Of a stretch of 64,000 nt of DNA, positions 11,788 to 61,639 are shown piece after piece. Below the pieces are notes generated by a model, which saw only the letters and a list, made by a program, of their open reading frames with translations, ran no database searches and had not been told where the DNA came from. The stretch is from a virus: IMG/VR virus record IMGVR_UViG_3300047553_000365, positions 1 to 64,000 of that record; one strand, written 5' to 3'. The position numbers and the translations under genes were made by a program. Positions within the stretch are counted from its first letter, which is position 1. Every line of letters starts with the position of its first letter.

Positions 11788-11943
11788 GCTTTGAAACCAT
11801 AATGATTAGCGTTGTGTTTGTTATCTACTTCTCTACAGGAGTGGGATACGCAATTAAAGGCAATTGGCCTTGGGCCATTGTTTGGGTTTCGTATGCTATG
11901 GCAAACGTTGGAATGATTTGGGCATCACTAGTAAAGAAATAAT

Positions 11944-12138
11944 ATGAAAAGAAAAACAGAAGAAATGATAGCAGCCATTGTTGGAGTATCAGGAGCAATA
12001 ATCTTCCTGTTGGGAGTCCTTGCTCTAATCGTTATGGCTTTTATAAAAGCCCCGATTGTGTGTTTTTGTTTTATTGGAGGACTTATTCTTCTCCATTGGA
12101 TGGTTTTTGGAATAGCGTATTGTAGTAGGGACAAATGA
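11944..12138 (+). CDS. small membrane protein
   Basis: Two hydrophobic segments. Confidence 0.6.
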   Translation: MKRKTEEMIAAIVGVSGAIIFLLGVLALIVMAFIKAPIVCFCFIGGLILLHWMVFGIAYCSRDK

Positions 12139-12139
12139 T

Positions 12140-12415
12140 ATGAACAAAGAACAAATTAAAGAAAATTTCCAAAAATGGAAAAAACTTAAAGCCGAATTAA
12201 ACGCTTTGGGGTTGAGTTGTTTTCCTGAATTTGCTGAAAAAGGATTTGATATTGTATCTATTGTAGAAGTTCTACAACCAATTACGGTTACTGAAATAGC
12301 TGAACTTTTAGGAGATTGGGGATCTCATGATGAGGTGGTAAAAAAAGCTTGGTATCATATTGGAACAAAAGAATTGGATATGGATCAACATTGGAGATTA
12401 ATCATTAGAAAATAA
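12140..12415 (+). CDS. hypothetical protein
   Basis: ORF track. Confidence 0.65.
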   Translation: MNKEQIKENFQKWKKLKAELNALGLSCFPEFAEKGFDIVSIVEVLQPITVTEIAELLGDWGSHDEVVKKAWYHIGTKELDMDQHWRLIIRK

Positions 12416-12416
12416 T

Positions 12417-12647
12417 ATGAAATACGGTAGACTTATTGAAAACTCTTATCCTTATAAGAAAGGAACAGAATTCATCATAACTGGAGGTGATGATGGGTGG
12501 GGAAGTGGATATCCCTTTTACAGCGGAACTATTAGGGGTATAAGGTTTTCCTTTGAAAGAGGTAGAGTGGAAATAATTTCAGAAGAGGAATTCATAAACA
12601 GAGTAATTAAATGTGAACCAATAATTTTACCAGAGGAGAATTATTAA
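12417..12647 (+). CDS. hypothetical protein
   Basis: ORF track. Confidence 0.65.
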   Translation: MKYGRLIENSYPYKKGTEFIITGGDDGWGSGYPFYSGTIRGIRFSFERGRVEIISEEEFINRVIKCEPIILPEENY

Positions 12648-12648
12648 T

Positions 12649-13065
12649 ATGAAAATCAAAGTTAAAACGACACCAGAACAAAGAAAGCTTATCAAAGAGC
12701 AGCTTGAGAGATACAAGGACAGCCTTTGTTCCTTGAAGGAAGAATATCTTCGTGAAGTTGAAGAAACCAAGGCAAGAATTTCAGAGTATAAAAAGTTTTG
12801 GGAAACCAATGAAATGTCAATTTATGAGTCTGACTATAATAGACCTTATGATAAGAAAAGACTTTGTAAGGCAAGGGCCGTATATAAAGAAATGGGGCTG
12901 AATATCAATACCATGGAACCTTGGAGTTTGTGGTGTTGCTCTGAATGTGGTCAAGAGATTAAGAAAAAATATATAGCTACTGGTCACGATCATACGGATT
13001 ATTCCTATGATGTTTGTGACTGTGATGGAGTTCAGAAAAACAAAAGATGGGAAGAATTGAATTAA
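12649..13065 (+). CDS. hypothetical protein (coiled coil plus Cys cluster)
   Basis: ORF track. Confidence 0.7.
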   Translation: MKIKVKTTPEQRKLIKEQLERYKDSLCSLKEEYLREVEETKARISEYKKFWETNEMSIYESDYNRPYDKKRLCKARAVYKEMGLNINTMEPWSLWCCSECGQEIKKKYIATGHDHTDYSYDVCDCDGVQKNKRWEELN

Positions 13066-13193
13066 TGAATAAATATGTTGAATTATTACTGAGTATGTGT
13101 ACTAGTTATCTAATGAATAAGATCACTAAGGAAACATTTTTATCTAATCTAGAAATTATGCTTACACAGATGAAAGAATTGAAGGATTGATAT

Positions 13194-13406
13194 ATGGAAA
13201 GACCGAGGAAAAGTAAAAGAATTTTGGCCCCACAAAAAGAGAATCCTCTAAAAGTTGTGACGGTTGAAATGAAAGCACCAGATGGCATGGGGGTTATTTT
13301 TATATATAATTGTTCAGATGAAGTCCTTAAAGAAAGAATCAAAGAAGAAGAGAGTAGAGGATACACTCTTGTATCACAAATGGCGTATAACTCAGAGGTA
13401 GAGTAG
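13194..13406 (+). CDS. hypothetical protein; stop inside tRNA-Ile
   Basis: ORF track; last codons overlap the tRNA acceptor and D arm. Confidence 0.55.
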   Translation: MERPRKSKRILAPQKENPLKVVTVEMKAPDGMGVIFIYNCSDEVLKERIKEEESRGYTLVSQMAYNSEVE

Positions 13407-13452
13407 AATCTTGATAAGGTTCAAGCCGTTGGTTCGATCCCAACTACGCCAA
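13381..13452 (+). tRNA. trnI: tRNA-Ile(GAT)
   Basis: TGGCGTA/TACGCCA, GAATC-TTGATAA-GGTTC. Confidence 0.92.
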
Positions 13453-13465
13453 CTTAAATAACATT

Positions 13466-13744
13466 ATGGAATATATACTAATAGCATTCGCGTTCTTCGT
13501 TCTTGGAATCATATCATTTCCCTTTCTAGCCTTTTTAAGAGCTAGAAGTGATAGAGAGTGGGATGATTCTAATATTACTAATATGATTAGATTACTGTCC
13601 CATGTCATTGCTCATCCTAGCGATTTTGCTAAGATGCAGTATCCAGATGGTAAAAAACCTTTCTGGTATCTTGACAAGGACGAATTTGCTGATATAGTAA
13701 ACAGTAGACCAAACAAAAAACAACATGAAAACAGGAAGAATTAA
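13466..13744 (+). CDS. membrane-anchored hypothetical protein
   Basis: N-terminal TM helix. Confidence 0.7.
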   Translation: MEYILIAFAFFVLGIISFPFLAFLRARSDREWDDSNITNMIRLLSHVIAHPSDFAKMQYPDGKKPFWYLDKDEFADIVNSRPNKKQHENRKN

Positions 13745-13903
13745 ACAAAGAGTGGTTGCCCAACGCGACAACAGATACTTTCAAGATAATGTCAATAATC
13801 TTTTAAATGAGGGATATCTTGTTATCGATCTAAAAATTAGTGATGAATTTATGGTGGCAGTTTTAGAAAAATTAGAAGAAAATAAAATAGAACAACAATA
13901 ATT

Positions 13904-14110
13904 ATGAGTAACGATAGATCAAATGGCGCAGGTGCAGGTGGGGGAATTGGCTTCGTAGGACTGTTAACAGTCGCTTTCGTAGTACTGAAGCTTTGTCATG
14001 TTATAGACTGGTCTTGGTGGTGGGTTCTTGCCCCCATTTGGATTTCTGCTATTTTCGTGATTGCAATTCTAGCAGTATTCTTAGGAATATTCATCCTGAT
14101 GGGCAAGTAA
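13904..14110 (+). CDS. small membrane protein (Fragile-X-F/TMEM185-like)
   Basis: LKLCHVIDWSWWWVLAPIW; paralog at 43603. Confidence 0.7.
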   Translation: MSNDRSNGAGAGGGIGFVGLLTVAFVVLKLCHVIDWSWWWVLAPIWISAIFVIAILAVFLGIFILMGK

Positions 14111-14183
14111 GGGAGTATAGTTTAACGGATAGAACGCATCGGTACGGACGATGAGGCTGTGGGTTCAATTCCTCATACTCTCA
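14111..14183 (+). tRNA. trnR: tRNA-Arg(ACG)
   Basis: GGGAGTA/TACTCTC, CATCG-GTACGGA-CGATG. Confidence 0.88.
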
Positions 14184-14196
14184 CACAAACAAAATT

Positions 14197-14637
14197 ATGG
14201 ACACCGAAGAAAAAATACAATTTCTAGAAGAACTATCGGGTTACGAAGGAACGGAATGTGGTGAAATGTGGTCTTGGTTATATAACTTATATCGTTATAA
14301 AGATTCATATTTATTCGATGAAGACTTTAAATCTAGTATGGATAAGGAAATCGAAAAACAATTTGATTCTGCTATGGAAATGATAGAAGAAGGAAGTCTT
14401 GAGGATGTGAATGAACTGCTTGAAAAATATTCCATATCAGTTAATGTTCCAACTACTCCTGTAGAGGATAAAATATTGACAATGTATTTTAGTGGAGATA
14501 ATGTGTGGGTAGCATGTAATCCCCATTTTGGTATAAGTGTTCTTGCTAAGACTGAGAAAGAAGCCATTGAAGAAGTTAAGAGAGCAATCAAAACACACAA
14601 AGTCAATAATTTTGAAAAATATGATTACGGAGAATAA
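14197..14637 (+). CDS. hypothetical protein with HicB-like C-terminus
   Basis: VWVACNPHFGISVLAKTEKEAIEEVKRAI. Confidence 0.55.
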   Translation: MDTEEKIQFLEELSGYEGTECGEMWSWLYNLYRYKDSYLFDEDFKSSMDKEIEKQFDSAMEMIEEGSLEDVNELLEKYSISVNVPTTPVEDKILTMYFSGDNVWVACNPHFGISVLAKTEKEAIEEVKRAIKTHKVNNFEKYDYGE

Positions 14638-14944
14638 TAATCTCAAACAGGGTTTAATGGATTATATGGAGAGAGCTAAAAATAGCGGAAAACCTGCTAT
14701 GATAGTTTCTTTCATAAAAGAATTACCATTATCCGAATTTTGGGAGAAGAGATTCGCGCAAAATGAAACAATGATGTTGTGGAAGTATCATGGATTATAT
14801 GAGGACACTGATTGTTATGTTGCTTTAGATATGGATGAAAAATATAACTATATTCCATTTATTATGGTAAGTGTAAAAGTCCATGATTACATAATTAAAG
14901 AGATTTATAAAATAGATGATTTGAATAAAGTGGATAAAATTTAA
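14621..14944 (+). CDS. hypothetical protein
   Basis: Internal ATG of track ORF 14537. Confidence 0.65.
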   Translation: MITENNNLKQGLMDYMERAKNSGKPAMIVSFIKELPLSEFWEKRFAQNETMMLWKYHGLYEDTDCYVALDMDEKYNYIPFIMVSVKVHDYIIKEIYKIDDLNKVDKI

Positions 14945-14948
14945 ATAT

Positions 14949-15025
14949 ACACGGGCATGTCCAAGGCAAGGCGATGAGGACTCCAAATCTTCGTGAGTAG
15001 GGTTCGATACCCTAACCGTGTGCCA
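14949..15025 (+). tRNA. trnW: tRNA-Trp(CCA)
   Basis: GAGGA-CTCCAAA-TCTTC, T arm TAGGG/CCCTA, encoded CCA; irregular acceptor/D junction. Confidence 0.85.
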
Positions 15026-15028
15026 GAT

Positions 15029-15099
15029 GTTCCGGTGGGGGAGTGGTTACTCGACAGTCTGCAAAACTGTTTATGTGTGTTCGATTCACACCCGGAACT
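15029..15099 (+). tRNA. trnC: tRNA-Cys(GCA)
   Basis: GTTCCGG/CCGGAAC, ACAGT-CTGCAAA-ACTGT, U73. Confidence 0.93.
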
Positions 15100-15268
15100 C
15101 ATAATAAAATTTTTCAATTAAAGTTAGGTTTATCGTCAAAAAGTTATCCAATATGCAACAGATAATGAAGTAGATTTATGGAGCCGCAATAATATAGAGT
15201 ATACAGCATAGTGAAATATATTTATTAGATAAACATACACCCCCTCGGTCAAAGGGATTAATTGAAAT

Positions 15269-15341
15269 GGGAAGTTAGCTCAGTTGGTAGAGCGGCTGAT
15301 TTACATTCAGCATGTCGGCGGTTCGAACCCGTCACTTCCTA
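15269..15341 (+). tRNA. trnV: tRNA-Val(TAC)
   Basis: GGGAAGT/ACTTCCT, GCTGA-TTTACAT-TCAGC. Confidence 0.95.
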
Positions 15342-15344
15342 CAT

Positions 15345-15554
15345 ATGCAAAAATACAAACTTGTTAAATTTGATTATGACAACATGCCAGAACCTTATCA
15401 TAAAGAATATCCCTTTACAAAACATGGTGTATATGTTATGTTGGGAGAAATTGAAGGTATGGATGGGCATTGTATTGTGGTAAGTAGAGACGGTCACACT
15501 TATTGGGGATATCATACAGAAAATTTTATTGAATTAACAGAAGAAGAATTATAA
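15345..15554 (+). CDS. hypothetical protein
   Basis: ATG just after tRNA-Val. Confidence 0.65.
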   Translation: MQKYKLVKFDYDNMPEPYHKEYPFTKHGVYVMLGEIEGMDGHCIVVSRDGHTYWGYHTENFIELTEEEL

Positions 15555-15555
15555 C

Positions 15556-15627
15556 GGAGCATTGGTATATCGGTTATTACCCTCGCCTGTCGAGCGAGTG
15601 AGTCGGGTTCAACTCCCGAATGTTCCG
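15556..15627 (+). tRNA. trnD: tRNA-Asp(GTC)
   Basis: GGAGCAT/ATGTTCC, CTCGC-CTGTCGA-GCGAG, G73. Confidence 0.95.
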
Positions 15628-15786
15628 CCCTCCTGCCTCTATTCAGCACAAGGAATAGAGTATTCTTTGGATAAGAGTGAGTTCGCAACTCAATGATGCC
15701 AAGGACAATCCGACACAAATTAAAGTAAGAGTGGGGTAGCGACCATTAAGAAATAGTCACTGTGTATTATCGGTAGTGGGAAATTA

Positions 15787-15859
15787 GGGGGATTAGCTCA
15801 ATTGGTAGAGCGTTGTCTTTGCAAGGCAAATGTCATCGGTTCGAATCCGATATCCTCCA
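15787..15859 (+). tRNA. trnA: tRNA-Ala(TGC)
   Basis: G3:U70 pair, loop TTTGCAA. Confidence 0.96.
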
Positions 15860-15866
15860 CATTAAC

Positions 15867-15942
15867 GGGCATGTATCCCAACGGTAGAGGAGATGCGCTT
15901 AGAACGCATATAGTGTCAGTTCGAATCTGACCATGCCCACCA
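15867..15942 (+). tRNA. trnL: tRNA-Leu(TAG), short variable loop
   Basis: GGGCATG/CATGCCC, ATGCG-CTTAGAA-CGCAT, encoded CCA. Confidence 0.9.
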
Positions 15943-16030
15943 TTGGCCTTAGTCGTATTAGGCCAACCCTTAGTGTTCGCAGGGATGGGATGAGGTTTAC
16001 GCCTATCATAAAACACCAAAAAACTGCAAT

Positions 16031-16103
16031 CCCTTGGTAGCTCAGTTGGTAGAGCATCTGATTGAAGATCAGAGTGTCGTCAGTTCAAATCTGGCCCAAG
16101 GGA
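16031..16103 (+). tRNA. trnF: tRNA-Phe(GAA)
   Basis: CCCTTGG/CCAAGGG, TCTGA-TTGAAGA-TCAGA. Confidence 0.96.
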
Positions 16104-16289
16104 CATTATGAAAACGAAAACATTATATAAACGACAGATAACCTACAATGATAAGGTGATTTGGGAAAGCGAATGGGGATGTGGAAAAGAAAAAACCCCT
16201 TGGGAACTATTGGAGGAAAAATATGGTAAAAACTTAATGAATAGGGTTACTATAAGTTTTCTTATAAAGAAAGATAATAATTGAAGAGT

Positions 16290-16363
16290 GGGGTGGTAGC
16301 TTAATGGTAAAGCCGCAGATTGTGATTCTGCCTATCAGGGTTCGATTCCCTGCCATCCCTCCA
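16290..16363 (+). tRNA. trnH: tRNA-His(GTG), no encoded G-1, U73
   Basis: GGGGTGG/CCATCCC, GCAGA-TTGTGAT-TCTGC, T-CCA; position -1 is T. Confidence 0.92.
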
Positions 16364-16365
16364 AC

Positions 16366-16436
16366 AGACCCGTAGTGTAACGGCAACACCCCTGATTTTG
16401 ATTCAGGTATTCAAGGTTCGAATCCTTGCGGGTCTA
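16366..16436 (+). tRNA. trnQ: tRNA-Gln(TTG)
   Basis: AGACCCG/CGGGTCT, CCTGA-TTTTGAT-TCAGG. Confidence 0.93.
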
Positions 16437-16472
16437 CTTGACATTGTGTTGGAATATGGTAATATAAATTAT

Positions 16473-16564
16473 GGATGTGTGGTCGAGTCTGGTTTATGGC
16501 ATCCGACTTGAAATCGGAAGATGGGTTAGCAGCCTGTCCGTGGGTTCAAATCCTACCGCATCCT
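16473..16564 (+). tRNA. trnS: tRNA-Ser(TGA)
   Basis: GGATGTG/CGCATCC, TCCGA-CTTGAAA-TCGGA, long variable arm. Confidence 0.95.
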
Positions 16565-16588
16565 CATAACTAGTCTATTATTTGTCAT

Positions 16589-16679
16589 GGATAGGTGGTA
16601 GAGTCTGGTTTATTACACTTCTTTGCTAAAGAAGCGGTCGCTAACAGCGGCCCGATGGGTTCGAATCCCTCCCTATCCT
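16589..16679 (+). tRNA. trnS: tRNA-Ser(GCT)
   Basis: GGATAGG/CCTATCC, CTTCT-TTGCTAA-AGAAG, long variable arm. Confidence 0.95.
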
Positions 16680-16696
16680 CTTAATTAAATACATAT

Positions 16697-17155
16697 ATGA
16701 ATGACGAACTAATATTACATGACTCAGAGACATTAAAACACGTAAATGCTGTAAGAGAAAATATCTGGGAACTTATTAAACATTTAGATGAAAGAGCGCA
16801 GGTTCACGATGCATCTAAATTTGAAGAACCAGAAAGATCAGTTTTTGCTTCTAATACTCCTAAATTGGCTAGAACCGAATATGGGACCGAAGCATATAAA
16901 AAACTTCTAGAAGAAGTCAAACCAGCTATAGATCATCACTATTCAAAGAATACTCACCATCCCGAACATTGGCCAAATGGTATTGAAGATATGGATTTGT
17001 TGGATCTAGTCGAAATGCTCTGTGATTGGGCGGCAGCTACCAAAAGAAATAAGAATGGTAATATACATAAATCCATTGAACATAATCAAGAGAGATTTGG
17101 TATAAGTCCTCAACTATCTAAGATATTTACAAATACGGTTAATAGATATTTCTAA
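16697..17155 (+). CDS. DUF5662-like HD-type protein
   Basis: HDASKFEEPE...HHYSKNTHHPEHW...EMLCDW. Confidence 0.75.
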   Translation: MNDELILHDSETLKHVNAVRENIWELIKHLDERAQVHDASKFEEPERSVFASNTPKLARTEYGTEAYKKLLEEVKPAIDHHYSKNTHHPEHWPNGIEDMDLLDLVEMLCDWAAATKRNKNGNIHKSIEHNQERFGISPQLSKIFTNTVNRYF

Positions 17156-49520: not shown

Positions 49521-49937
49521 TTACTTGGATATTTTTAGAATCAGTTGATATTCCGTATACTCTTCATTGGGACCAAACTTATCATCCTCGATTGTTTCAA
49601 TTCTGTGAAGTTCAAGCTTACCCTTAGTCCAATCATTGACTGTAGTGTAGTCGGTATAATGTTTAGTCACATCCTTATTAATATAAAGAGTTAGTCCTTC
49701 ATGCGTAACTTCTGCAAACTTTGGAATAATAACTTCATCCCTAACAACATTCGTAACAGTATTAGGGGCGAATAAACAAAAGATAGTTGCCACAATAGCG
49801 TTTAGCATGAGTCCTAGGATAATACCGCACACAAAATTTGCAACAGTATCACCAACATCCTCATACATACATGAAAGTATACATAAGTAAAAGACAATCG
49901 CAGCCACTATAAGGTATGTAATTTCGTAACCAGTCAT
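49521..49937 (-). CDS. two-TM membrane protein
   Basis: Hydrophobic N-terminal half. Confidence 0.7.
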   Translation of the reverse strand: MTGYEITYLIVAAIVFYLCILSCMYEDVGDTVANFVCGIILGLMLNAIVATIFCLFAPNTVTNVVRDEVIIPKFAEVTHEGLTLYINKDVTKHYTDYTTVNDWTKGKLELHRIETIEDDKFGPNEEYTEYQLILKISK

Positions 49938-49954
49938 ATTATATTATTCTAATG

Positions 49955-50027
49955 TAGGGGCAGTAGGATTTGAACCTACGACCCAAGGATTATGAGTCCT
50001 CTGCTCTAACCACTGAGCTATACCCCT
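49955..50027 (-). tRNA. tRNA-Ile2/Met(CAT), Ile2-like body
   Basis: AGGGGTA/TGCCCCT, GAGGA-CTCATAA-TCCTT; D arm AGCTCAGTGGTTAGAGC as in ileX-type tRNAs. Confidence 0.88.
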
Positions 50028-50033
50028 ATGTTA

Positions 50034-50270
50034 TTAATTAGTGCAAACACGCTCACGCATAATTTGAAATACTGTTTGCTTAAGAAGATCACTACCAATA
50101 CTCAATCCTAAAAAATTAACACTCTCTAGTTCATGCACACGGTCAAGAAAGGTATCCAATTGATGCCTTTCATCTTCCTTAAGACCTTTAGTATCAAATA
50201 CTCCAATAGGTGTAGTTGCTCTAATAAAATACCTGTTTTCCCATCCGTCTACTCTCCATTTCATAGTCAT
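50034..50270 (-). CDS. hypothetical protein
   Basis: ORF track. Confidence 0.6.
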   Translation of the reverse strand: MTMKWRVDGWENRYFIRATTPIGVFDTKGLKEDERHQLDTFLDRVHELESVNFLGLSIGSDLLKQTVFQIMRERVCTN

Positions 50271-50271
50271 A

Positions 50272-50499
50272 TTATTTGTTTGGTTTATGTTTCTTTAACA
50301 GCTTTAAACAAAGTTTTCCTAATTCATCATCTCCAAAGTGTTGTTTAATTATATGCGACACTAAAGCTTTTTCACTTTTCAATCCATTACAAACCCAAAG
50401 TTCTCCCTTCTTAGAATATCCCCAAGTTCCTCCCCAAACATTAGGATCACACTTATGGAATTCGTATCCTGCAAGTTTTACTATTTCTTCGTATGTCAT
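50272..50499 (-). CDS. hypothetical protein
   Basis: ORF track. Confidence 0.6.
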   Translation of the reverse strand: MTYEEIVKLAGYEFHKCDPNVWGGTWGYSKKGELWVCNGLKSEKALVSHIIKQHFGDDELGKLCLKLLKKHKPNK

Positions 50500-50502
50500 A
50501 GA

Positions 50503-50835
50503 TTACATTTTCTGTAAAACTTCCCGAACCCTTTCCGCAGCTTCCAACTTAAAATTAACCCCATCTTCAAAATCAATAAACCAATCCAACAAAAACAATT
50601 CAACTGCTTGAAACATGGCCAAAGAATCAAGATCAGTAGAGAAACAACAAAAGCCACCATTACCATATTGCGCTCCAATTTCTGCCAATTTATGTTCGCA
50701 GTCTCCTCTACGAATAATGTAAACATTAGAAGGATCAACATCCCACAAAATCCCCAACAATTTCTTTAGGGCATCTTCTGGTTGATAATTTTTATATTGT
50801 TCAACAAAATTATTCATATTAGTTGTAGTTTTCAT
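50503..50835 (-). CDS. hypothetical protein
   Basis: ATG 6 nt after promoter motif. Confidence 0.7.
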   Translation of the reverse strand: MKTTTNMNNFVEQYKNYQPEDALKKLLGILWDVDPSNVYIIRRGDCEHKLAEIGAQYGNGGFCCFSTDLDSLAMFQAVELFLLDWFIDFEDGVNFKLEAAERVREVLQKM

Positions 50836-50868
50836 AGTCTTATTGTATCCCGGTTTTAATTACTTAAG

Positions 50869-50943
50869 TGGTGTTACATATTGGAATCGAACCAATCACC
50901 CGTCAGTTATAAACCAACCGCTCTACCAATGAGCTAATGTAAC
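50869..50943 (-). tRNA. tRNA-Ile(TAT)
   Basis: GTTACAT/ATGTAAC, GTTGG-TTTATAA-CTGAC, T arm ATTGG/CCAAT, encoded CCA. Confidence 0.9.
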
Positions 50944-50957
50944 ATTTATTATTACAG

Positions 50958-51084
50958 TGGCATGGGTGGGAATCGAACCCACACGCCCTAAACGGGCAAC
51001 GGATTTTGACGATTAATATAATATTGTTTCAACTATATTAATCGGTTTAAAAAGTCCGTAGCGTCTACCAATTCCGCCACCATG
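50958..51084 (-). tRNA. tRNA-Leu (CAA or TAA) with 42-nt hairpin insertion in the anticodon loop
   Basis: GGCATGG/CCATGCC, Leu D arm GGCGGAATTGGTAGACGC, ACGGA/TCCGT stem, long variable arm; insert holds CGATTAATATA/TATATTAATCG. Confidence 0.85.
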
Positions 51085-51097
51085 CCATTAACTCTAT

Positions 51098-51253
51098 TTA
51101 GTCTGCCTCATCTACAATGAAGACAGAAGCATAAGATTGAGTCTTAGGGTCTTCATAGCTTACACCATAGGCAGGATTGCAATCCTTAAGGGCAGCACAG
51201 TTACTAAGAGTAATTGCACCAATCATAATTCCAATATATTTCAACGTTTTCAT
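51098..51253 (-). CDS. small lipoprotein (51 aa, not in track)
   Basis: MKTLKYIGIMIGAITLSNC lipobox-like. Confidence 0.55.
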   Translation of the reverse strand: MKTLKYIGIMIGAITLSNCAALKDCNPAYGVSYEDPKTQSYASVFIVDEAD

Positions 51254-51449
51254 ATTTATTTTATTTTAGCAGTTATACCATTTATTACAACATTTACATT
51301 TAAAAGTTCCTCCAAATACAGGGTGTGCAGACTCCATAATATGTTTACCAGTTTTAGTAACTTCACACACTGTATTGATTTGTCGGCTAGAAGTAGGATT
51401 GAACATACTTAGAATAATTTCACCAATGAGTTTCAATATTTTCATAGGT

Positions 51450-51695
51450 TTATTTCTTGTAGCCTTTCAGTAGTTCTCCAATATGTTCAAGAACCAATTT
51501 AGCTTCTTCGATAGTAAGACAAACCATTCCACCATTATAGTTCATCTTTTGAGACTTGTCAATCTCAAAATTTGCAATAGTAATTCCATCACCCCCAACA
51601 TCTTTACGAAAATTCTCAATAGAAATACCATAAGTCTGTCCCATGAAGATTTTAATTTCCTTATATACTTCTGGTTCCATAATTTTATTCTTCAA
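51450..51695 (-). CDS. hypothetical protein
   Basis: ORF track. Confidence 0.65.
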   Translation of the reverse strand: MKNKIMEPEVYKEIKIFMGQTYGISIENFRKDVGGDGITIANFEIDKSQKMNYNGGMVCLTIEEAKLVLEHIGELLKGYKK

Positions 51696-51879
51696 ATTGT
51701 CTTACATATTCGTCTGCCATCATAGATATAATGGTTACTTGCCATGTTAGGGGAAACCACTTATCCCTAATCAACTCCCAAAAATCCTTTGGCCACCTAC
51801 CATATTCACACAGATATTTCCATGCTTTAATATGTTCAGGATTCTTAATATCAAAATAGTCTACGATTGATTCTTGCAT
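51685..51879 (-). CDS. hypothetical protein
   Basis: ORF track. Confidence 0.65.
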   Translation of the reverse strand: MQESIVDYFDIKNPEHIKAWKYLCEYGRWPKDFWELIRDKWFPLTWQVTIISMMADEYVRQFEE

Positions 51880-51880
51880 A

Positions 51881-52069
51881 TTACAGTTTGTTTAATTCTT
51901 TTCTTATTTTAGTGTTACAAGGAAAACAATGTTCACATGGAAAAAAACCCTTTGGAATAGTTTCCGTTACTGTTCCTTCCACCTTTAAACATTTACTATG
52001 TTCAGCATGATATACCCTAACACCCCAACGAGGAGTTGCAATTGCTTTTGGGTTATATTTTAATTTCAT
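51881..52069 (-). CDS. hypothetical protein
   Basis: ORF track. Confidence 0.55.
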   Translation of the reverse strand: MKLKYNPKAIATPRWGVRVYHAEHSKCLKVEGTVTETIPKGFFPCEHCFPCNTKIRKELNKL

Positions 52070-52260
52070 AGTTTGTTAATTTCTTCAAACGCTTTCTCCC
52101 AATTGTTTGTATCCATTAGAACGGAGATAGCGAGTTGGTCATACTTACCCAAGGTCTTGAATTTGTCAACAAATTCCTTTGCCTTTTGTTCTGCAAGTTC
52201 CGCAGATTCATTTACAGTAAGTGTAAATAGATTAAGATTGTTAATAAGTTTCGGTGACAT
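52066..52260 (-). CDS. hypothetical protein
   Basis: ATG 6 nt after promoter motif. Confidence 0.65.
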   Translation of the reverse strand: MSPKLINNLNLFTLTVNESAELAEQKAKEFVDKFKTLGKYDQLAISVLMDTNNWEKAFEEINKL

Positions 52261-52284
52261 GGTTATAGTATACCGTGGTTTTAA

Positions 52285-52641
52285 TTACTTGGTAAATGCT
52301 CTGATAGAATACAGAGAGATACTAAATAGGATTGCAGTTCTAATAACATAGAGTTCAACATATTGTAGAGAACATCCGATACAATCCAAAATACCATTAA
52401 CATAAGGTTCCTTCATAAACCATGCGATTAAAAGAATGGAAGGTAGACCAATAATTGCAGGAGTAGATTCTGGCTTCTCATCAAACTTAAGTAGTTTAGA
52501 GAATGTCCAAACACCAAATAGAAAGACACTCAAGCCTGTAAGATAACCCCATAATGCATAGTCAAACAAAAATCCACCACCTAACATAATTGGTAGACCT
52601 GTCCACCAAGGAAGGTTAAAAAGATAACTAAGTATTTTCAT
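52285..52641 (-). CDS. multi-TM membrane protein
   Basis: Four hydrophobic segments. Confidence 0.7.
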   Translation of the reverse strand: MKILSYLFNLPWWTGLPIMLGGGFLFDYALWGYLTGLSVFLFGVWTFSKLLKFDEKPESTPAIIGLPSILLIAWFMKEPYVNGILDCIGCSLQYVELYVIRTAILFSISLYSIRAFTK

Positions 52642-52643
52642 AA

Positions 52644-52859
52644 TTAATAAGTGTCTTTCTGAGTCCTTCTATTACAGATATCATCTTCCCATTCATTATG
52701 TTTAGGAACATGATTCTCAACTGCTTCTTCCCTTGTGTTGGCAAATTGCCATACCCAACAAGCAACATCTAGCTTCTCAAAAGCATCTTTCCAAGATTCA
52801 TTCTCTTCAAAAGCAACAATATTGCCATCATTTTCTTCGATTGTAATGTATCTGTTCAT
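52644..52859 (-). CDS. hypothetical protein
   Basis: ORF track. Confidence 0.65.
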   Translation of the reverse strand: MNRYITIEENDGNIVAFEENESWKDAFEKLDVACWVWQFANTREEAVENHVPKHNEWEDDICNRRTQKDTY

Positions 52860-52861
52860 AA

Positions 52862-53170
52862 TTAATAAAGATTTTCAGAATATAATATTCCCGTTTGCCC
52901 ATCATAACAGAGTTTTCTAATTTGTCCATTTTTTTCTGCAACTGCCCAAGCCTCTTCTCTTGATAAGAATTCACCAAACTGATTAATAAATCCTTGTTTC
53001 TCTACTTGATATTTAAAATTATCCCCATAGATTCTTCTACCTGTTTCTCTCATATCTGGTGAAAAATGTCTAACTCCCGAAAGAATTAACCCATCTTTCA
53101 TCATCATAGCTGCACATACTATGATAGAGTCAGGCTTTACTAAACCTTTTTCTGTCCAATAGTCTTCCAT
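52862..53170 (-). CDS. conserved phage hypothetical protein
   Basis: IVCAA...GVRH...QGFINQFGEFLSREEA...LYSENLY. Confidence 0.75.
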   Translation of the reverse strand: MEDYWTEKGLVKPDSIIVCAAMMMKDGLILSGVRHFSPDMRETGRRIYGDNFKYQVEKQGFINQFGEFLSREEAWAVAEKNGQIRKLCYDGQTGILYSENLY

Positions 53171-53180
53171 AATTTTAAGG

Positions 53181-53214
53181 GGTAGCAGTAACCCACTCCT
53201 AGATTACTGCTACC
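53181..53214. terminator. perfect 11-bp inverted repeat (terminator-like)
   Basis: GGTAGCAGTAA/TTACTGCTACC in an intergenic gap. Confidence 0.55.
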
Positions 53215-53243
53215 GTTTTACTCCCCACCACTTGTATTACAAG

Positions 53244-53738
53244 TTATTCAACATCTGTAGGAATTCCAAGAATGTTCTCTGCCTTAACATTGAAACATTC
53301 CTTAACTTCCTCAACTTCTCCCATAAGCTTCTTTGCATCACTACCAGTAAGATAGGAAGCAAACTGTTCCTTACTCACTTCTGATCCATCAACATAGTAA
53401 TGGGTCTTAGTCCTATTACCCACAGAAGGGTAAAGACGAATGTAATCCACTCCCTTATGTTCGATGATATAAGGGAATTGCTTCCATTGTCCCCAAGGAA
53501 GTGCGCCAACTTCTCCCCTAGTTCCTTCTTCAATTCCCTGCTTAACGCTGGAAAGGTTAGCATAATCAATACCAGCCCTTACAACACCTTCTGATACCTT
53601 TTCAAGAATAACATTCTTAAAAGAAGCAGCAGGTTTAGGTTGAGACTTCCAGCAAACCTTTACAAAGTTACCCTTTGCAGACAGAATCTTATTCTTAATT
53701 GCATCGGCACTCAATGACATATTAGTAGTATCGCTCAT
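53244..53738 (-). CDS. hypothetical protein
   Basis: ATG 6 nt after promoter motif. Confidence 0.8.
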   Translation of the reverse strand: MSDTTNMSLSADAIKNKILSAKGNFVKVCWKSQPKPAASFKNVILEKVSEGVVRAGIDYANLSSVKQGIEEGTRGEVGALPWGQWKQFPYIIEHKGVDYIRLYPSVGNRTKTHYYVDGSEVSKEQFASYLTGSDAKKLMGEVEEVKECFNVKAENILGIPTDVE

Positions 53739-53762
53739 ATCAGTATTATAGTTCGGTTTTAA

Positions 53763-54017
53763 TTAGTAGTTTCTATTAGCATTCACAAGACCATCAAACC
53801 ATGATTGGTCTTCCATAGACTTAGTAGCATTAGGACAAGTCCTAGAGATAAAAACATTAATATACTTACTGGTAGTTTTACTATGTTTGTAACCAGTAAT
53901 AACAACTCCCCTGCCGGGAATAAATGCAGCAACAGGAGTAGAGTAAGAATAAAAGATAACGCTTCCATCATTAAGATGAATGTCCGTTTGATTAGGAGAA
54001 ACATTAATAACTTTCAT
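53763..54017 (-). CDS. conserved phage hypothetical protein
   Basis: FYSYSTPVAA...HSKTTSKYIN. Confidence 0.75.
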   Translation of the reverse strand: MKVINVSPNQTDIHLNDGSVIFYSYSTPVAAFIPGRGVVITGYKHSKTTSKYINVFISRTCPNATKSMEDQSWFDGLVNANRNY

Positions 54018-54044
54018 GGCCCTATTGTATCCCGGTTTTAATTA

Positions 54045-54323
54045 CTATTCTTTTTCTATTGGAGTATGCACATTAACACAGTAAATCAAATTGTCATTTC
54101 CTCTACCACTATTTCTATATTCAAATGATCTACAAAACTCGTATCCTTTTTCTTTCCACATTTTACCAAGGAATTCATTTCTTTCATTCACATCATCAAA
54201 CTCATAGTAATTAGTAGTCACAGAGGTTTTTCTACCTTTGATAAATATCCAACTACTACCTGTATGTTGAAAGGTTAAGGACATATTAATATTCGTAGCC
54301 TTTATATTTTCTATAAGTATCAA
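54045..54323 (-). CDS. hypothetical protein
   Basis: ORF track. Confidence 0.55.
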   Translation of the reverse strand: MILIENIKATNINMSLTFQHTGSSWIFIKGRKTSVTTNYYEFDDVNERNEFLGKMWKEKGYEFCRSFEYRNSGRGNDNLIYCVNVHTPIEKE

Positions 54324-54483
54324 AACATTCGGGATCTTGTTTGGCTTTTCGCCTTTCTTCTCTGATCTTACTTTTCTTTAAATATTTACGATACTTTGAT
54401 TGTTTATGTTCTCCCCCTTTTTTGGGAGAATCAAAATATCTTTCAATTTGTTCTGACATAATAGTGTAATTAATGGCGATCAC
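54286..54483 (-). CDS. small basic hypothetical protein (true start likely downstream of tRNA-Arg)
   Basis: MSEQIERYFD...YRKYKGYEY. Confidence 0.55.
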   Translation of the reverse strand: MIAINYTIMSEQIERYFDSPKKGGEHKQSKYRKYLKKSKIREERRKAKQDPECFDTYRKYKGYEY

Positions 54484-54551
54484 GGCAAGATTCGAACTTG
54501 CAACCTAATCCTTAGAAGGGATTTGCTCTGGTCCTATTGAGCTACGCGACC
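54474..54551 (-). tRNA. trnR: tRNA-Arg(TCT)
   Basis: GGTCGCG/CGTGATC, AATCC-CTTCTAA-GGATT, encoded CCA. Confidence 0.95.
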
Positions 54552-54560
54552 ATGTTAATA

Positions 54561-55094
54561 TTATTTATCCTCAATATTGAATTTGTCACGAAGATCATTC
54601 ATAAGTTCAACTGCTTCAAGGGTAGTATCCTCTCCACTTTTAATATACTCCAAGGCTCTAGCAACAACATTCCTTAGATTACTAACAGCCTTTTTAACAT
54701 GAGTATACTCCTCATTCGTGTCACAGATATAAAGAGAGATTTTTTCCAATTCCTTAAGACTTTCGATTTTTCCATACCAGATTTTTTCTATTGTTTCAAT
54801 AACCCTTTCTTTAACCCTTTCATTCCATCCTGCAACTCTATTAACCCTAGTGCTTTTAAGGACACCCTTATTAGTTCTAGTATTAACAGCACAGATACGA
54901 ATAGCATCTGCTCCACACTTACGAGAAACCCCATTAGTAATGGAGGAATAAACCAACACCATAATATCAGGATTCTTCTTACTAGTGTAGGAATAGACAA
55001 TCTCATTTCCTGACTTATCCTTTGTCCAACCTTTAGCGTGTTGCAAAAGGCCATCAAATTCTAATTCAGTAATGGTAACATAGGTCTTGCTCAT
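54561..55094 (-). CDS. hypothetical protein
   Basis: ATG 6 nt after promoter motif. Confidence 0.75.
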   Translation of the reverse strand: MSKTYVTITELEFDGLLQHAKGWTKDKSGNEIVYSYTSKKNPDIMVLVYSSITNGVSRKCGADAIRICAVNTRTNKGVLKSTRVNRVAGWNERVKERVIETIEKIWYGKIESLKELEKISLYICDTNEEYTHVKKAVSNLRNVVARALEYIKSGEDTTLEAVELMNDLRDKFNIEDK

Positions 55095-58110: not shown

Positions 58111-58155
58111 AGTTATTATAACTTAATGAATTTGATATTTTAATAAGTTTGTTAT

Positions 58156-58194
58156 AAAAATGAAAGTGGTGTAGTCTTTCACAACTACACCACT
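58156..58194 (-). terminator. terminator closing the ncRNA array
   Basis: AGTGGTGTAGT/ACTACACCACT 11-bp stem then TTCATTTTT. Confidence 0.8.
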
Positions 58195-58212
58195 CGTTTA
58201 GGTATATCAAAC

Positions 58213-58333
58213 AAATCTCTTTTTTATTATAGAATCCCGTTCTACCACTAAACTAACCGCTCCATAAGGAGGGTATTGGAATCGAACCAATGACTGGATT
58301 TTGGATTAATAATGTTACTTGCTGTAGAGATTT
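58213..58333 (-). ncRNA. array unit 6: Y-RNA-like, permuted tRNA domain
   Basis: AAATCTCT/AGAGATTT stem, CAGCAAGT, T arm ATTGG-TTCGATT-CCAAT, acceptor ACCCTCC-TTAT-GGAG(C)GGT, then D arm. Confidence 0.8.
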
Positions 58334-58337
58334 TATC

Positions 58338-58484
58338 AGAAATCCATCTTGTTTGCTTCCCTGCGTCTACCAGTTTCGCCATCCCCAACGTTTATTTATA
58401 TAAGTGTGGGGAGTAGGACTTGAACCTACAGGTGATCTATTGATCGCGGGACTTTACATTGCTATTATTTGCTGTTGAATTTCT
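58338..58484 (-). ncRNA. array unit 5: Y-RNA-like, permuted Leu-type tRNA domain
   Basis: AGAAATT/GATTTCT stem, CAGCAAAT, variable arm, T arm GTAGG-TTCAAGT-CCTAC, acceptor TCCCCA/TGGGGA closed by a loop, D arm GGCGAAACTGGTAGACGC. Confidence 0.8.
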
Positions 58485-58488
58485 TATC

Positions 58489-58611
58489 AGAACTTGTTTT
58501 TTTCTTTTTTCATGCTGCCACTACACCATACGCTCCGCTAGGAACGTAGCAGGATTCGAACCTGCGCCTCTTGTTTACATACAATTAGATAATATTTGCA
58601 GTTCAAGTTCT
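58489..58611 (-). ncRNA. array unit 4: Y-RNA-like, permuted tRNA domain
   Basis: AGAACTT/AAGTTCT stem, CTGCAAAT, T arm GCAGG-TTCGAAT-CCTGC, acceptor TACGTTCC-TAGC-GGAGCGTA, D arm GTGT-AGTGGCA-GCAT. Confidence 0.82.
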
Positions 58612-58615
58612 TATC

Positions 58616-58678
58616 AGATTACATTTTACTTGGTTTCATTTATCAATTGAATAGTATATATTTGCTGTATTGTAATCT
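58616..58678 (-). ncRNA. array unit 3: minimal Y-RNA-like
   Basis: AGATTAC/GTAATCT stem, CAGCAAAT, A-rich loop. Confidence 0.75.
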
Positions 58679-58682
58679 TATC

Positions 58683-58739
58683 AAGTCTCGTTTTTTCCTA
58701 TTTTGCTAATTGGTTTTTTATATTTGCTGGTTGAGACTT
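58683..58739 (-). ncRNA. array unit 2: minimal Y-RNA-like
   Basis: AAGTCTC/GAGACTT stem, CAGCAAAT, A-rich loop. Confidence 0.75.
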
Positions 58740-58743
58740 TATC

Positions 58744-58796
58744 AGAATAGTTTTGTTTCCTTTCTTAAATGTAGAATATATTTGCTGGACTATTCT
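58744..58796 (-). ncRNA. array unit 1: minimal Y-RNA-like
   Basis: AGAATAGT/ACTATTCT stem, CAGCAAAT, A-rich loop. Confidence 0.75.
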
Positions 58797-58894
58797 TATA
58801 GAATAAAGGATTCAATACTTGGGATTACCATCATTTCGCAGCAAGCTTAACTGTATCAGGGTTCCTTTTCAAGCCTTTATTCATGGCGTAATAC

Positions 58895-58923
58895 TATTTA
58901 TCACAATAGCATTACGGTGTCAA
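58895..58923 (-). promoter_or_regulatory. promoter of the ncRNA array
   Basis: TTGACA-17 nt-TAAATA (the -10 box also matches the late motif). Confidence 0.75.
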
Positions 58924-58967: not shown

Positions 58968-60620
58968 TTAAACTTCGACCATGTTTAGAATCTCTTGGTC
59001 AAGAGCTTCTTCCATGAGTTCGTAAGTGGTCTTAATCTTGCCGCTAAGGAAAGAGATAACGGATGCAGAGTATCCACCGAAGTAATACACATTAAGCGCA
59101 TTCTTACCAGTTTCAAACTTCTCACCAGTTCCCTTACCATAGTAGTTACTTTGGAGATTCCAAAGAACGATTACAAATTCATCAACATATTCCTTAGAGA
59201 ATCCTGCATTTCTAAGAGTAGTGCGAGCAGCATCCACATTAGTCTTATTCAAACTAGCAGGATTAAACTCACTATCACTAATGCACAGAATTCCACGGGG
59301 GAAATCAGATTCGGGAGTTCCTTGTTTCTTCATCTTGCAGAACAAGTTAATAACACTTTGGAAGTTGGTTGAACCAACAAATCCTGACTTATCATTCTTC
59401 CACTTGGAAGTAGGAGAATGACCATTCCACTTGTGAAGCTTTGCATCAGAATTGAATTCAATCCAATGTCCTGCGAAAGTTCCAGTAAGGAATTCACTAA
59501 AGTAAAGAGCAAGAGCCTTACCAATATCATAGCAAGTAGACTTAGTTCCAGTAGCAATGCTACCCATAGAACCAGAAGTGTCACGCACCACGATTAGGTT
59601 GGTATAGTTTTCACCTGCCTTAGCCTTATCAACAAGAGTTTGAAACTGCTTATCAATAGTAAGTTCCTTGTTAGAATCCCCTTGCCAATGACCTTCAAAG
59701 AGTTCATGGACAAATCCAGTATACTTAACAGCAGTAGTCTCAGGCTTCTTAATCCATTCAGAATACTTCTCACTAAGACCTTGATTCTTAAGGAACTTGC
59801 TCTTAACAAGAATCGACAATGCACGACCATGAATCTTACTAAAGTCGATATCCTTAAACTTACCTTGTGAGATAAGCTTTTGCCAATCGTGTGCAGATCC
59901 ACTAGTCTTAAGCTTACGATACTTCTTGTAGTTAGCAGGAGAAGTCTTGCTTCCAAACAGTAGATAACAAATCCACTTAGCAATTTGATTATTAGACTGT
60001 GCATCCACAGTAGTAGCTTGAGACTTAGCCTTGATTTGTGGAAGATACTTCTTCACAAGATCGCAGGTCTTATCATTATTAAGTGCAGCCAGAATCAGTT
60101 CACCAAACTTATCCCAATCCAATTGACGGTTTTCCCATCCATTGTAACTAAGATCATATTGCAGCATGGTAAACACATCATGCCATGAACCCACAGAAAC
60201 AAACAGCAGAATGTTATTCCAGAAAGAATCAGGAGAAACAGTGTGCAGCCAAATCATACGCATGATAGCTTCATGCTTAAGTTCAGTTCCAAGTTGAGGA
60301 TTCTTAGTCTTACTACCATCAGGCAGACTAACAATACGAGGAATGGTTCTAAGGAACAAAGTAAACTTTACTGCCTTAAGAGGATCTTCACCCCAAAGAG
60401 TAGATGCATCAGCAGCAATCTCAGAAAACTTGCGGGGAGTCTTGTAATTACCAGCCTTAGTAAATTGATCGACTAGCGTAGAGCCTGAAGATTTAAACTT
60501 CAATGCTCCATTACCAGAACGAGTCTTATTCGATTCTGCATTGGCATTAGCAAGAAACTCATTAACTTTTTTACGAGTCACTTTACGCACGGTTTCGGCT
60601 TGTCTTTTATTCTCAAACAT
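58968..60620 (-). CDS. TROVE/Ro60-like helical protein with C-terminal vWA domain (DUF2828-like)
   Basis: Helical N-terminal region; IVVRDTSGSM (MIDAS DxSxS), STNFQSV, ILCISDSEFN, IVLWNL. Confidence 0.7.
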   Translation of the reverse strand: MFENKRQAETVRKVTRKKVNEFLANANAESNKTRSGNGALKFKSSGSTLVDQFTKAGNYKTPRKFSEIAADASTLWGEDPLKAVKFTLFLRTIPRIVSLPDGSKTKNPQLGTELKHEAIMRMIWLHTVSPDSFWNNILLFVSVGSWHDVFTMLQYDLSYNGWENRQLDWDKFGELILAALNNDKTCDLVKKYLPQIKAKSQATTVDAQSNNQIAKWICYLLFGSKTSPANYKKYRKLKTSGSAHDWQKLISQGKFKDIDFSKIHGRALSILVKSKFLKNQGLSEKYSEWIKKPETTAVKYTGFVHELFEGHWQGDSNKELTIDKQFQTLVDKAKAGENYTNLIVVRDTSGSMGSIATGTKSTCYDIGKALALYFSEFLTGTFAGHWIEFNSDAKLHKWNGHSPTSKWKNDKSGFVGSTNFQSVINLFCKMKKQGTPESDFPRGILCISDSEFNPASLNKTNVDAARTTLRNAGFSKEYVDEFVIVLWNLQSNYYGKGTGEKFETGKNALNVYYFGGYSASVISFLSGKIKTTYELMEEALDQEILNMVEV

Positions 60621-60717: not shown

Positions 60718-61458
60718 CTAATATAACCATAAATCTTCCTCACTTGTAATAGCACCAAACAAGAAATCATTAATAGAAAGGTAATCAGTTAGGTTATAAT
60801 TATCACCTTTAGTTGGCGACCACCATGACCCATTTCTTTGTTGGTCAGAGCATTCATCCTCCCAACTGTGTCCAATCTTTTTAAGCATTTCTTTTTGATC
60901 TGCTCTACCTTGTCCATGTAATTCTTTAGGAGAAAAATGAGACAGGCAAAACATAGAGATACTATTTCTTTCCCAATCCTTAACTCTCCATAGAAAGACA
61001 TTGGCAACATCTTCTTTCGGACATTGAAATGCTCTAGCATCAAACACAGCAGGATTATATGATCCGATATTAAATCTACCATTATCCCAATTCAAACATG
61101 TCCAAGTTTTATTGAAGTAGGCAGTCATTAGTGCAGCAGTAACAGATTCAATCTTATTCTGTCTACCACCGAACCATTGTTGAGTTTCAATACTACCACT
61201 ATCATCCAACACAAAAGTTACTTCATCACTTTGAACATACAATCCTTTACAGTTTTGCATTTCCTTAGCAACATACTTAGCAGAAATAAACATAGCATTG
61301 ATTAACTTCGTATCAAAAGGTTTATCGCAACCTTTAGTCCAAGTATGAAATGCCTTACCATCTACTCTAACAAGGATAGGAACCTTGGGAGTAAAGTAAT
61401 GTTCACTGATAGATTCGTAGTGTTTGATTCTATCACCTAATGTATCTTTGCTATTCAT
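60718..61458 (-). CDS. thg1: tRNA-His guanylyltransferase Thg1-like 3'-5' polymerase
   Basis: VRVDGKAFH, KPFD, YVQSDEVT, FGGRQNKIES, VFDARAF, FLWRVKD..RNSI. Confidence 0.92.
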   Translation of the reverse strand: MNSKDTLGDRIKHYESISEHYFTPKVPILVRVDGKAFHTWTKGCDKPFDTKLINAMFISAKYVAKEMQNCKGLYVQSDEVTFVLDDSGSIETQQWFGGRQNKIESVTAALMTAYFNKTWTCLNWDNGRFNIGSYNPAVFDARAFQCPKEDVANVFLWRVKDWERNSISMFCLSHFSPKELHGQGRADQKEMLKKIGHSWEDECSDQQRNGSWWSPTKGDNYNLTDYLSINDFLFGAITSEEDLWLY

Positions 61459-61492: not shown

Positions 61493-61628
61493 GGTGGGTG
61501 GGATATCCCAATAGCTTCATATACCTACTGAATCGAACAGTCCTTATATCATTATAGAAGAATGATATCGTGCAATTACTAGTATTTTTAAGCCCGTGAA
61601 CACTCAAGTATAGAGGCTATTGCCACCC
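61493..61628 (-). ncRNA. extended tRNA-like structured RNA
   Basis: GGGTGG/CCACCC, CAATAGC/GCTATTG, TATACTT/AGGTATA, ATATCATT-CTTCTAT-AATGATAT, ACTG-TTCGATT-CAGT. Confidence 0.6.
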
Positions 61629-61639
61629 ATTAAAATTTA

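Follow-up and report, generated by a model that had tools for sequence, protein, structure and literature searches.

A tandem array of small RNAs with a shared handle and modular cargoes, encoded beside a Ro60-like gene in a freshwater phage

In association with a Y RNA, Ro60 tethers PNPase, and its gene sits in RNA-repair operons (PMC4201824, PMC7790460). In the set formed in bacteria and phages by Ro60 (Rsr), YrlA and YrlB (Rfam RF02553; Chen et al. 2014, PMC4201824), the gene for a ring-plus-vWA protein lies beside those of its small RNAs, with several RNAs per locus. Phages carry relatives of this protein: surveys of jumbo phages list TROVE proteins among the RNA-repair gear (PMC7824862), and gp130 of phage Bas63, a Ro60-like protein, is reported to counter the Ppl defence, its discoverers suspecting that the “tRNA genes” neighbouring gp130 are in fact Y RNAs (bioRxiv 10.1101/2024.10.10.617714). 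Here we describe a locus with the same layout in a freshwater phage. The DNA analysed is a stretch of 64,000 nucleotides (nt) from IMG/VR record IMGVR_UViG_3300047553_000365 (positions 1 to 64,000), referred to below as the window; coordinates are counted from its first letter. Positions 58796-58213, read on the minus strand, hold six consecutive small-RNA units (U1 to U6) in one transcription unit. The array begins 172 nt after the stop codon of a gene on the same strand whose product, 550 amino acids long, is predicted to fold like Ro60. We consider it likely that these RNAs, with their modular cargoes, form a divergent Ro60/Y-RNA ribonucleoprotein together with the product of that gene.

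Each unit opens with a stem strand of 7-9 nt, which 1-4 nt separate from a box of 8 nt; an insert (28-120 nt), the complementary stem strand and the sequence GAUA follow. The latter links one unit to the next; the final unit, U6, has the tail GUUUGAUA (58212-58205). The box follows the pattern C(A/U)GCAA(A/G)U: U4 has CUGCAAAU, U6 has CAGCAAGU, and the other four units share CAGCAAAU. Stems differ from unit to unit. A script recovered exactly the set of stems listed in an earlier note on this DNA, which had been made from the letters alone and had proposed a six-unit array at this place; together with a direct reading of the minus strand, this established that the array had been delineated correctly to the base. 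Tandem Repeats Finder, applied to 58205-58796, reported no sequence repeat. Therefore, the units share an architecture and not a sequence.

The same result was one of the reasons to reject the idea that the locus is another type of processed array, made of type III antitoxin-like (ToxI) RNAs or of CRISPR-like guides serving an unlinked protein. Tandem units separated by short conserved linkers do suggest endonucleolytic processing, as this idea would have it; yet the near-identical direct repeats were not found, every unit has a stem of its own, and the array is flanked by no ToxN-like or Cas gene, its conserved neighbour being the Ro-like gene. We hold this explanation to be highly unlikely. 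Chance was considered as well, that is, a non-functional series of hairpins arising by accident in AT-rich DNA, or of intergenic repeats resembling terminators. U6 folds no better than shuffled versions of itself (z -0.27), so that energy alone lends the structure no support; what does support it is covariation. As a control, we asked how often a Watson-Crick bracket of at least 7 base-pairs (bp) with the same geometry surrounds random positions of the window. The answer was 5.5%, as against five of the six array motifs by the same strict rule (the sixth, in U5, has a bracket of 9 bp, one of them G-U). The motif pattern occurs five more times in the window, each time without such a bracket. 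Along with seven covarying stem pairs and a set of 136 model matches lying without exception on the gene strand (see below), this control refutes the chance-hairpin explanation and leaves it with a negligible probability.

Covariation and linkage to the gene were assessed in viral relatives of the locus. Homologues of the Ro-like protein were collected from IMG/VR; their loci bear L numbers, and the counts that follow come from 82-84 such loci. Units occur directly after or just before the homologue genes, about 12 of them in L001 and about 8 in L002. By a script that counted CAGCAA motifs with a bracketing stem in 84 loci, the gene strand has 345 of them, clustered beside the Ro-like gene, and the opposite strand 71. 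The 166 units that stand in arrays carry 130 distinct stems; these begin with AG or AA and finish with CU, and the commonest linker is GAUA. Alignment of 55 short units from about 30 phages (alignment A2) yielded the consensus UAAG-stem-nnACAGCAAAU...stem-CUGAUA. All seven stem pairs have changed on both sides, and 100% of the cells are paired, compared with 33-40% when the partner strand is slid. The A2 units were picked for having stems, which makes the pairing percentage partly circular and gives weight to an independent control. To this end, A2 was converted into a covariance model (R1; cut-off E<=0.01), many of whose matches in the survey lie outside its training set. In 82 loci R1 found 136 matches, distributed over 59 loci and all (136/136) on the gene strand. 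On the phage's own 138-kilobase (kb) record, it found the array only, with scores of 47.4 bits for U1, 53.5 bits (E 4e-10) for U2 and 51.9 bits for U3. Thus, the covariation that the earlier note had read from six differing stems is upheld and strengthened, and a covariance-model search of the kind that it suggested detects units not just in these viral loci but also in a cultured cyanophage and a bacterial chromosome (see below).

When the open reading frames neighbouring the array in the window were used as tblastn queries, only the gene and the array were found to travel together, the other neighbours being different. Gene and array therefore behave as a two-part module. A nucleotide search with the array against GenBank phages returned no match.

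Sequence comparisons give a partial view of the neighbouring protein. Pfam matches comprise DUF7788 (E 1.7e-10) and, weakly, DUF2828 (E 0.002); among phage families, the protein matches PHROG 850, “RNA-binding protein” (E 1e-35). A phmmer search of the PDB with the single protein gave no match, a protein atlas search retrieved the protein's own family only, and a literature search found no paper linking DUF2828 to RNA. In an alignment of 81 diverse homologues (A1), the MIDAS residues D347, S349 and S351 are invariant, and the profile made from A1 matches human and Xenopus Ro60 in the PDB (E 2e-4 and 7e-4), in the vWA part only. Structure prediction extends the match to the whole chain. Folding of the single sequence was insufficient (pLDDT 38), a confident fold requiring A1; with this alignment, AlphaFold (AF2) produced a model with pLDDT 92 and pTM 0.90. 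The best 13 Foldseek matches in the PDB are all Ro60/TROVE structures (human, Xenopus, Deinococcus Rsr and Thermus phage phiLo; E 2e-8 to 7e-5). All of the top 10 in VIA-align are Ro60/TROVE as well, with Z scores of 13.5-17.8 across 397-433 residues; alignments to vWA domains alone reach a plateau at about Z 10. From this full-length match, the modelled protein is best described as a full-length Ro60 paralogue that the Pfam TROVE model fails to recognise. It differs from the Ro60 of the YrlA system in belonging to the DUF2828/DUF7788 branch, which lies outside that Pfam model.

Relatives of the Ro-like protein were found in 548 GenBank phage records and about 1,900 clusters. Those in GenBank include Felix-O1-type coliphages, Listeria A511-like phages and Enterococcus phages, and in mycobacteriophages they are annotated “Ro-like RNA binding protein”. 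The homologues in Felix-O1-type phages, at about 24% identity, probably connect the present protein to Bas63 gp130, which likewise is a Ro60-like phage protein encoded beside a tRNA/small-RNA region, in work that left the RNA family undefined. The closest cultured relative belongs to a cyanophage, Leptolyngbya phage Lbo-JY46 (46% identity), where the gap right after the gene contains five unannotated units scoring up to 59.9 bits with R1. Outside phages, an 8-Mb bacterial contig has a DUF2828 gene followed by units with R1 scores of 37.5, 25.8 and 23.7 bits. A tRNA cluster, RtcB and a WYL regulator precede this gene. The locus thus echoes the rsr-yrlBA-rtcBA operon of Salmonella (PMC7790460), with which it has the RtcB neighbour in common; RtcB was not found in the 67%-complete record of our phage. 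The transcriptomes of four amoebozoans (Rhizamoeba, Pellita, Endostelium and Dracoamoeba) contain close homologues as well. The Rhizamoeba saxonica homologue (P0231) has a 2H phosphoesterase/2′-5′ RNA ligase-like domain (PF13563) fused to its C-terminus, a fusion that again ties the Ro-like family to RNA-end chemistry.

What the stems enclose varies from unit to unit. U1 to U3 have short inserts. In the inserts of U4 to U6, a T arm comes first, then an acceptor stem with a short closing loop and then a D arm, so that the 3′ half of a tRNA precedes the 5′ half. In U4 the acceptor stem has 7 bp and a closing loop of 4 nt, and there is no anticodon arm; in U5, the variable arm is long and a linker of about 15 nt closes the acceptor stem. 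ARAGORN recognises a cloverleaf only upon circular permutation. In design, these cargoes are tRNAs opened at the anticodon and circularly permuted, in the manner of YrlA. The likeness to YrlA extends to the organisation of U4 to U6 as a whole, with an end-paired basal stem, an internal loop and a tRNA-like domain whose acceptor stem is closed; U1 to U3 share the stem only. The phage RNAs differ from YrlA in their handle, UAAG-stem-ACAGCAAAU ... stem-CUGAUA, and in forming arrays of up to 6-12 units, most of which lack a tRNA part. Among the relatives, T arms are confined to the long units, of which 29 out of 64 have one; the 93 short units all lack it. L001 and L002 have orthologous U5 payloads. 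Overall, the cargoes are modular, comprising short hairpins, tRNA mimics and others, which bears out the interchangeable payloads postulated in the earlier note.

Two further observations concern cargoes and tRNAs. Many short units of different phages (in A2; for example L020 5627-5690, L027 5246-5310, L022 5313-5379) share a hairpin of the form UUUCAA-AUUUGGK-UUUGAAA, followed by AACA; this inner hairpin is a conserved cargo subtype. As for ordinary tRNAs, ARAGORN identified 25 genes in the phage, located in window segments 1-17000 and 49900-54600. The cargoes being recent copies of these was considered and rejected, the best scores amounting to less than half the maximum. One of the tRNAs, at 2757-2830, is of the amber-suppressor type (anticodon CUA), and an Rfam tRNA match at 50958-51086 is 129 nt long, suggesting an insert or intron.

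RNA from the array may have been captured in run X16, a metatranscriptome of sediment (Logan contigs, k=31). A contig of 123 nt matches U6 with no mismatch, running from 58300 to 58207 and then from 58299 to 58271. Its length equals 93 plus 30 (k-1) nt and its tail repeats its head, which makes it a closed cycle of 93 k-mers; therefore, A58207 is joined to A58299. A58207 lies inside the final GAUA (GA^UA), and the joint can be placed to within one A. From the U6 box to the 5′ end of the circle there are 17 nt. A second X16 contig spans the 3′ end of the Ro-like gene. The library may contain DNA, but linear DNA would yield no cycle; gaps in the X16 cover of the array are not to be read as evidence of absence. 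A further run, X3, contributed no aligned contigs although its word share was 0.96. The joint was not found in viral and metagenome DNA contigs, a negative that says nothing since a control pattern internal to U6 was equally absent from them. We view the cycle as a strong lead, not a proof, for expression of U6, cleavage of the linker at GA^UA and ligation. Candidate enzymes for the last step exist in the phage: the genome encodes a T4 Rnl1-type RNA ligase (75743-76318) and a second RNA_ligase-family open reading frame (87142-87741), both outside the window.

The permuted order, and the possible circular form of U6, recall the permuted tRNA genes of Cyanidioschyzon merolae, where the 3′ half likewise comes first and a circular form arises (PMC4238349). 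By analogy, U4 to U6 might be true permuted tRNA genes, the circle being opened at its acceptor end by RNase P and a 3′ nuclease to give functional tRNAs, and the handle acting as a processing signal. All three units have the 3′ half ahead of the 5′ half, and across the joint of the 93-nt U6 cycle a 5-bp anticodon stem is restored, adjoining a well-formed loop: ARAGORN pairs AAUCC with GGAUU, the analogue of the anticodon stem, beside the loop CUAUAAU. However, 18 further nt accompany this loop and the acceptor stem has two mismatches, U4 is devoid of any anticodon arm, and no bulge-helix-bulge motif is evident. Nor would such genes account for U1 to U3 and most units of the relatives (93 of them short), which have no tRNA parts, or be called for in a phage already equipped with 25 ordinary tRNA genes. 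The phage cargoes thus differ from the algal genes in lacking a usable anticodon arm and a bulge-helix-bulge motif, and in their bacterial and phage setting. We judge this explanation decidedly improbable.

Under the reading that we favour, the six RNAs would be transcribed from their own promoter as a single precursor ending at the terminator, and probably freed by cuts in the GAUA linkers. Every unit would present the same handle, namely a basal stem with conserved outer pairs (5′ UAAG ... CUG 3′) and a single-stranded ACAGCAA(A)U on the 5′ side, and this handle would be the docking site of the Ro-like ring. The interior would be a free cargo slot, filled by short A-rich hairpins in U1 to U3 and by anticodon-less, permuted elbows of the YrlA type in U4 to U6. 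After release, at least the U6 cargo could be circularised, the Rnl1-type ligase of the phage being a plausible catalyst. The cargoes may serve as adaptors or decoys that bring tRNA-recognising processing, repair or decay enzymes to the ring; alternatively, they may soak up host nucleases that target tRNA. We infer a function of the particle in RNA quality control and counter-defence during infection from its relatives, that is, from Ro60/Y RNA, the TROVE proteins of jumbo phages and Bas63 gp130. What the analysis shows is how the units are built, that their stems covary, that they are linked to the gene, how the protein folds and that tRNAs are mimicked; binding, the enzymes of processing and the role in the cell are inferred. 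This picture upholds and extends the earlier proposal of a polycistronic, processed family of protein-binding RNAs: the adjacent Ro60-like gene now provides a likely partner, and the only sign of processing is one circular U6 product in a single metatranscriptome.

Several findings weigh against this interpretation. The phage handle is unlike the Ro-binding helix of canonical Y RNAs. Pfam TROVE (PF05731) does not match the protein at E<=0.01, and recognisable units are mostly missing where the protein shares 35% identity or less. The Rfam YrlA model, whose gathering score is 69, aligns over its full length to U6 with 28.5 bits (E 9e-4) and reaches 32.5 bits on an L022 unit. The evidence for transcription and processing comes from contigs of a single run. 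Lastly, gp130 alone, without its RNAs, countered Ppl in T7 (bioRxiv 10.1101/2024.10.10.617714), an activity that needs no phage RNA, so that the RNAs may be dispensable for some functions of the protein. This last result also fits a different scheme, in which the RNAs act without the Ro-like protein, as decoys or sponges for anticodon nucleases, RNase P or tRNA-modifying enzymes, or as riboregulators, their adjacency to the gene reflecting no more than co-regulation within an RNA-repair island. TRNA-like cargoes could indeed compete for tRNA-binding enzymes, as was raised for YrlA (PMC7790460). Such a scheme leaves aside that the gene and the array form the only synteny conserved over very different phages and a bacterium. 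Moreover, the part common to all units is the handle and not the cargo, which speaks for their binding the same partner. We regard independent action of the RNAs as improbable, and a Ro60/Y-RNA-type module as the better account of the locus.

The handle has one recurrent near-match among described RNAs. A scan of 4227 Rfam families assigned the units to none at gathering score, in agreement with the earlier note, which could not place them in a named family; the recurrent near-match was the Dictyostelium Class I RNA (RF01414, Dicty_Class_I_RNA). The full model aligns to U3 with 32.7 bits (E 5e-4), U1 scores 17 bits, and in the relatives nine units from eight loci score 28.6-39.7 bits, over the whole model and with exact unit boundaries. 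The gathering score of 41.5 was reached by no unit in 18 loci, and by the Rfam criterion the phage units are not Class I members. Class I RNAs are 42-65 nt long, start with AAG, end with CUGU, and have a covarying terminal stem, a conserved unpaired box adjoining its 5′ strand and an otherwise variable sequence (PMC7919456). The phage U1 to U3 (53-63 nt) similarly combine a short covarying terminal stem, an AAG start, a CUG end, an unpaired ACAGCAA box adjoining the 5′ stem strand and an A-rich variable remainder. In contrast, Class I genes are dispersed in the nuclear genomes of dictyostelids and have a DUSE promoter, where the phage array has a sigma-70-like element, and Class I RNAs have no tRNA-like cargo of the kind seen in U4 to U6. 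Their sole demonstrated direct binder is an RRM protein, CIBP/Rnp1A, with no Ro-like partner known. A Class I pull-down yielded four proteins, one of which (DDB_G0281243) has no known function.

This likeness may reflect common descent, a common type of partner or chance. We tentatively raise the possibility, which we think less likely than its negation, that the phage and bacterial handle RNAs and the dictyostelid Class I RNAs form one ancient family whose handle docks DUF2828-type Ro60 paralogues. In that case, Class I RNAs would serve a Ro-like ring as Y-RNA-like cofactors, with DDB_G0281243 as one candidate partner, and in phages the cargo slot would additionally yield small circular RNAs that mimic tRNA. 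This resemblance to Class I RNA just below threshold, the YrlA-like permuted tRNA mimics in U4 to U6 and the upstream gene as partner are what the present analysis adds to the earlier description.

The features of the locus are collected in Table 1. The promoter-like element, proposed as a promoter in the earlier note and here again read by eye, was not called by a consensus promoter scanner, whose rule its second hexamer fails; an identical element occupies the same position in the related phages L001 and L002. The strong terminator that the note had placed downstream of the array is confirmed. The leader between promoter and U1 contains, at 58813-58848 on the minus strand, a degenerate handle-like sequence, AAGCUUG-CUGCGAAAU...CAAGU, with a stem of only about 5 bp; R1 does not detect it. 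Further upstream, the Thg1-like gene stands beside a Ro-like gene in one of 82 loci (L001 only); we count it as a neighbour and not among the conserved parts of the module. Just ahead of it, at 61493-61630 on the minus strand, ARAGORN and Rfam call no tRNA-like element at threshold. With the Rnl1-type ligase and the second ligase, the Thg1-like gene makes up an RNA-repair toolkit scattered over the genome. In other loci, tmRNA genes lie directly downstream of handle-RNA arrays (L027 6263-6605, L021 6306-6708), and a Hatchet self-cleaving ribozyme (L024 1927-2012; 68.6 bits, above the Rfam threshold) lies about 1 kb upstream of one.

Table 1. Positions of the RNA units and associated features in the window
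Feature	Coordinates	Strand	Description
Unit 1	58744..58796	-	53 nt; handle AGAAUAGU / ACUAUUCU, box CAGCAAAU; short A-rich insert
Unit 2	58683..58739	-	57 nt; handle AAGUCUC / GAGACUU; short insert
Unit 3	58616..58678	-	63 nt; handle AGAUUACA / UGUAAUCU; short insert
Unit 4	58489..58611	-	123 nt; handle with CUGCAAAU box variant; permuted tRNA-like elbow at 58570-58511
Unit 5	58338..58484	-	147 nt; handle and permuted class-II-like tRNA mimic at 58451-58358
Unit 6	58213..58333	-	121 nt; handle with CAGCAAGU; permuted tRNA mimic at 58306-58233
93-nt closed cycle of unit 6	58207..58299	-	circular or head-to-tail RNA; one X16 contig
Promoter-like TTGACA-N17-TAAATA	58895..58923	-	before the array; read by eye
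Intrinsic terminator	58155..58195	-	hairpin at 58195-58164; 13-bp stem, 5 G-C pairs, T run; ends the array transcript
Ro60-like protein gene	58968..60620	-	550 aa; DUF2828 N-terminal helical ring and DUF7788 vWA domain, MIDAS DxSxS; proposed RNA partner
Thg1-like 3′-5′ nucleotidyltransferase gene	60718..61458	-	Pfam Thg1 E 9e-28; PHROG 4717 E 4.5e-71

The Ro60/Y-RNA system is a classic yet poorly understood form of RNA surveillance, of which a second, very widespread branch is defined here. Its handle RNAs belong to no Rfam family and recur beside a Ro60-like gene in many phages and in a bacterial chromosome. The handle with its cargo slot, in arrays of up to a dozen, provides a rule for finding unannotated small RNAs in the tRNA regions of phages, and its layout is a natural scaffold design for presenting RNA modules. 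Tractable models are at hand in the cultured phage Lbo-JY46 and in the Felix-O1-type coliphages, whose protein has already been linked to escape from Ppl. The near-match to Class I RNA offers a testable hypothesis for an orphan class of eukaryotic RNAs, and the circular U6, if confirmed, would be a rare phage example of a small circular RNA that is well defined.

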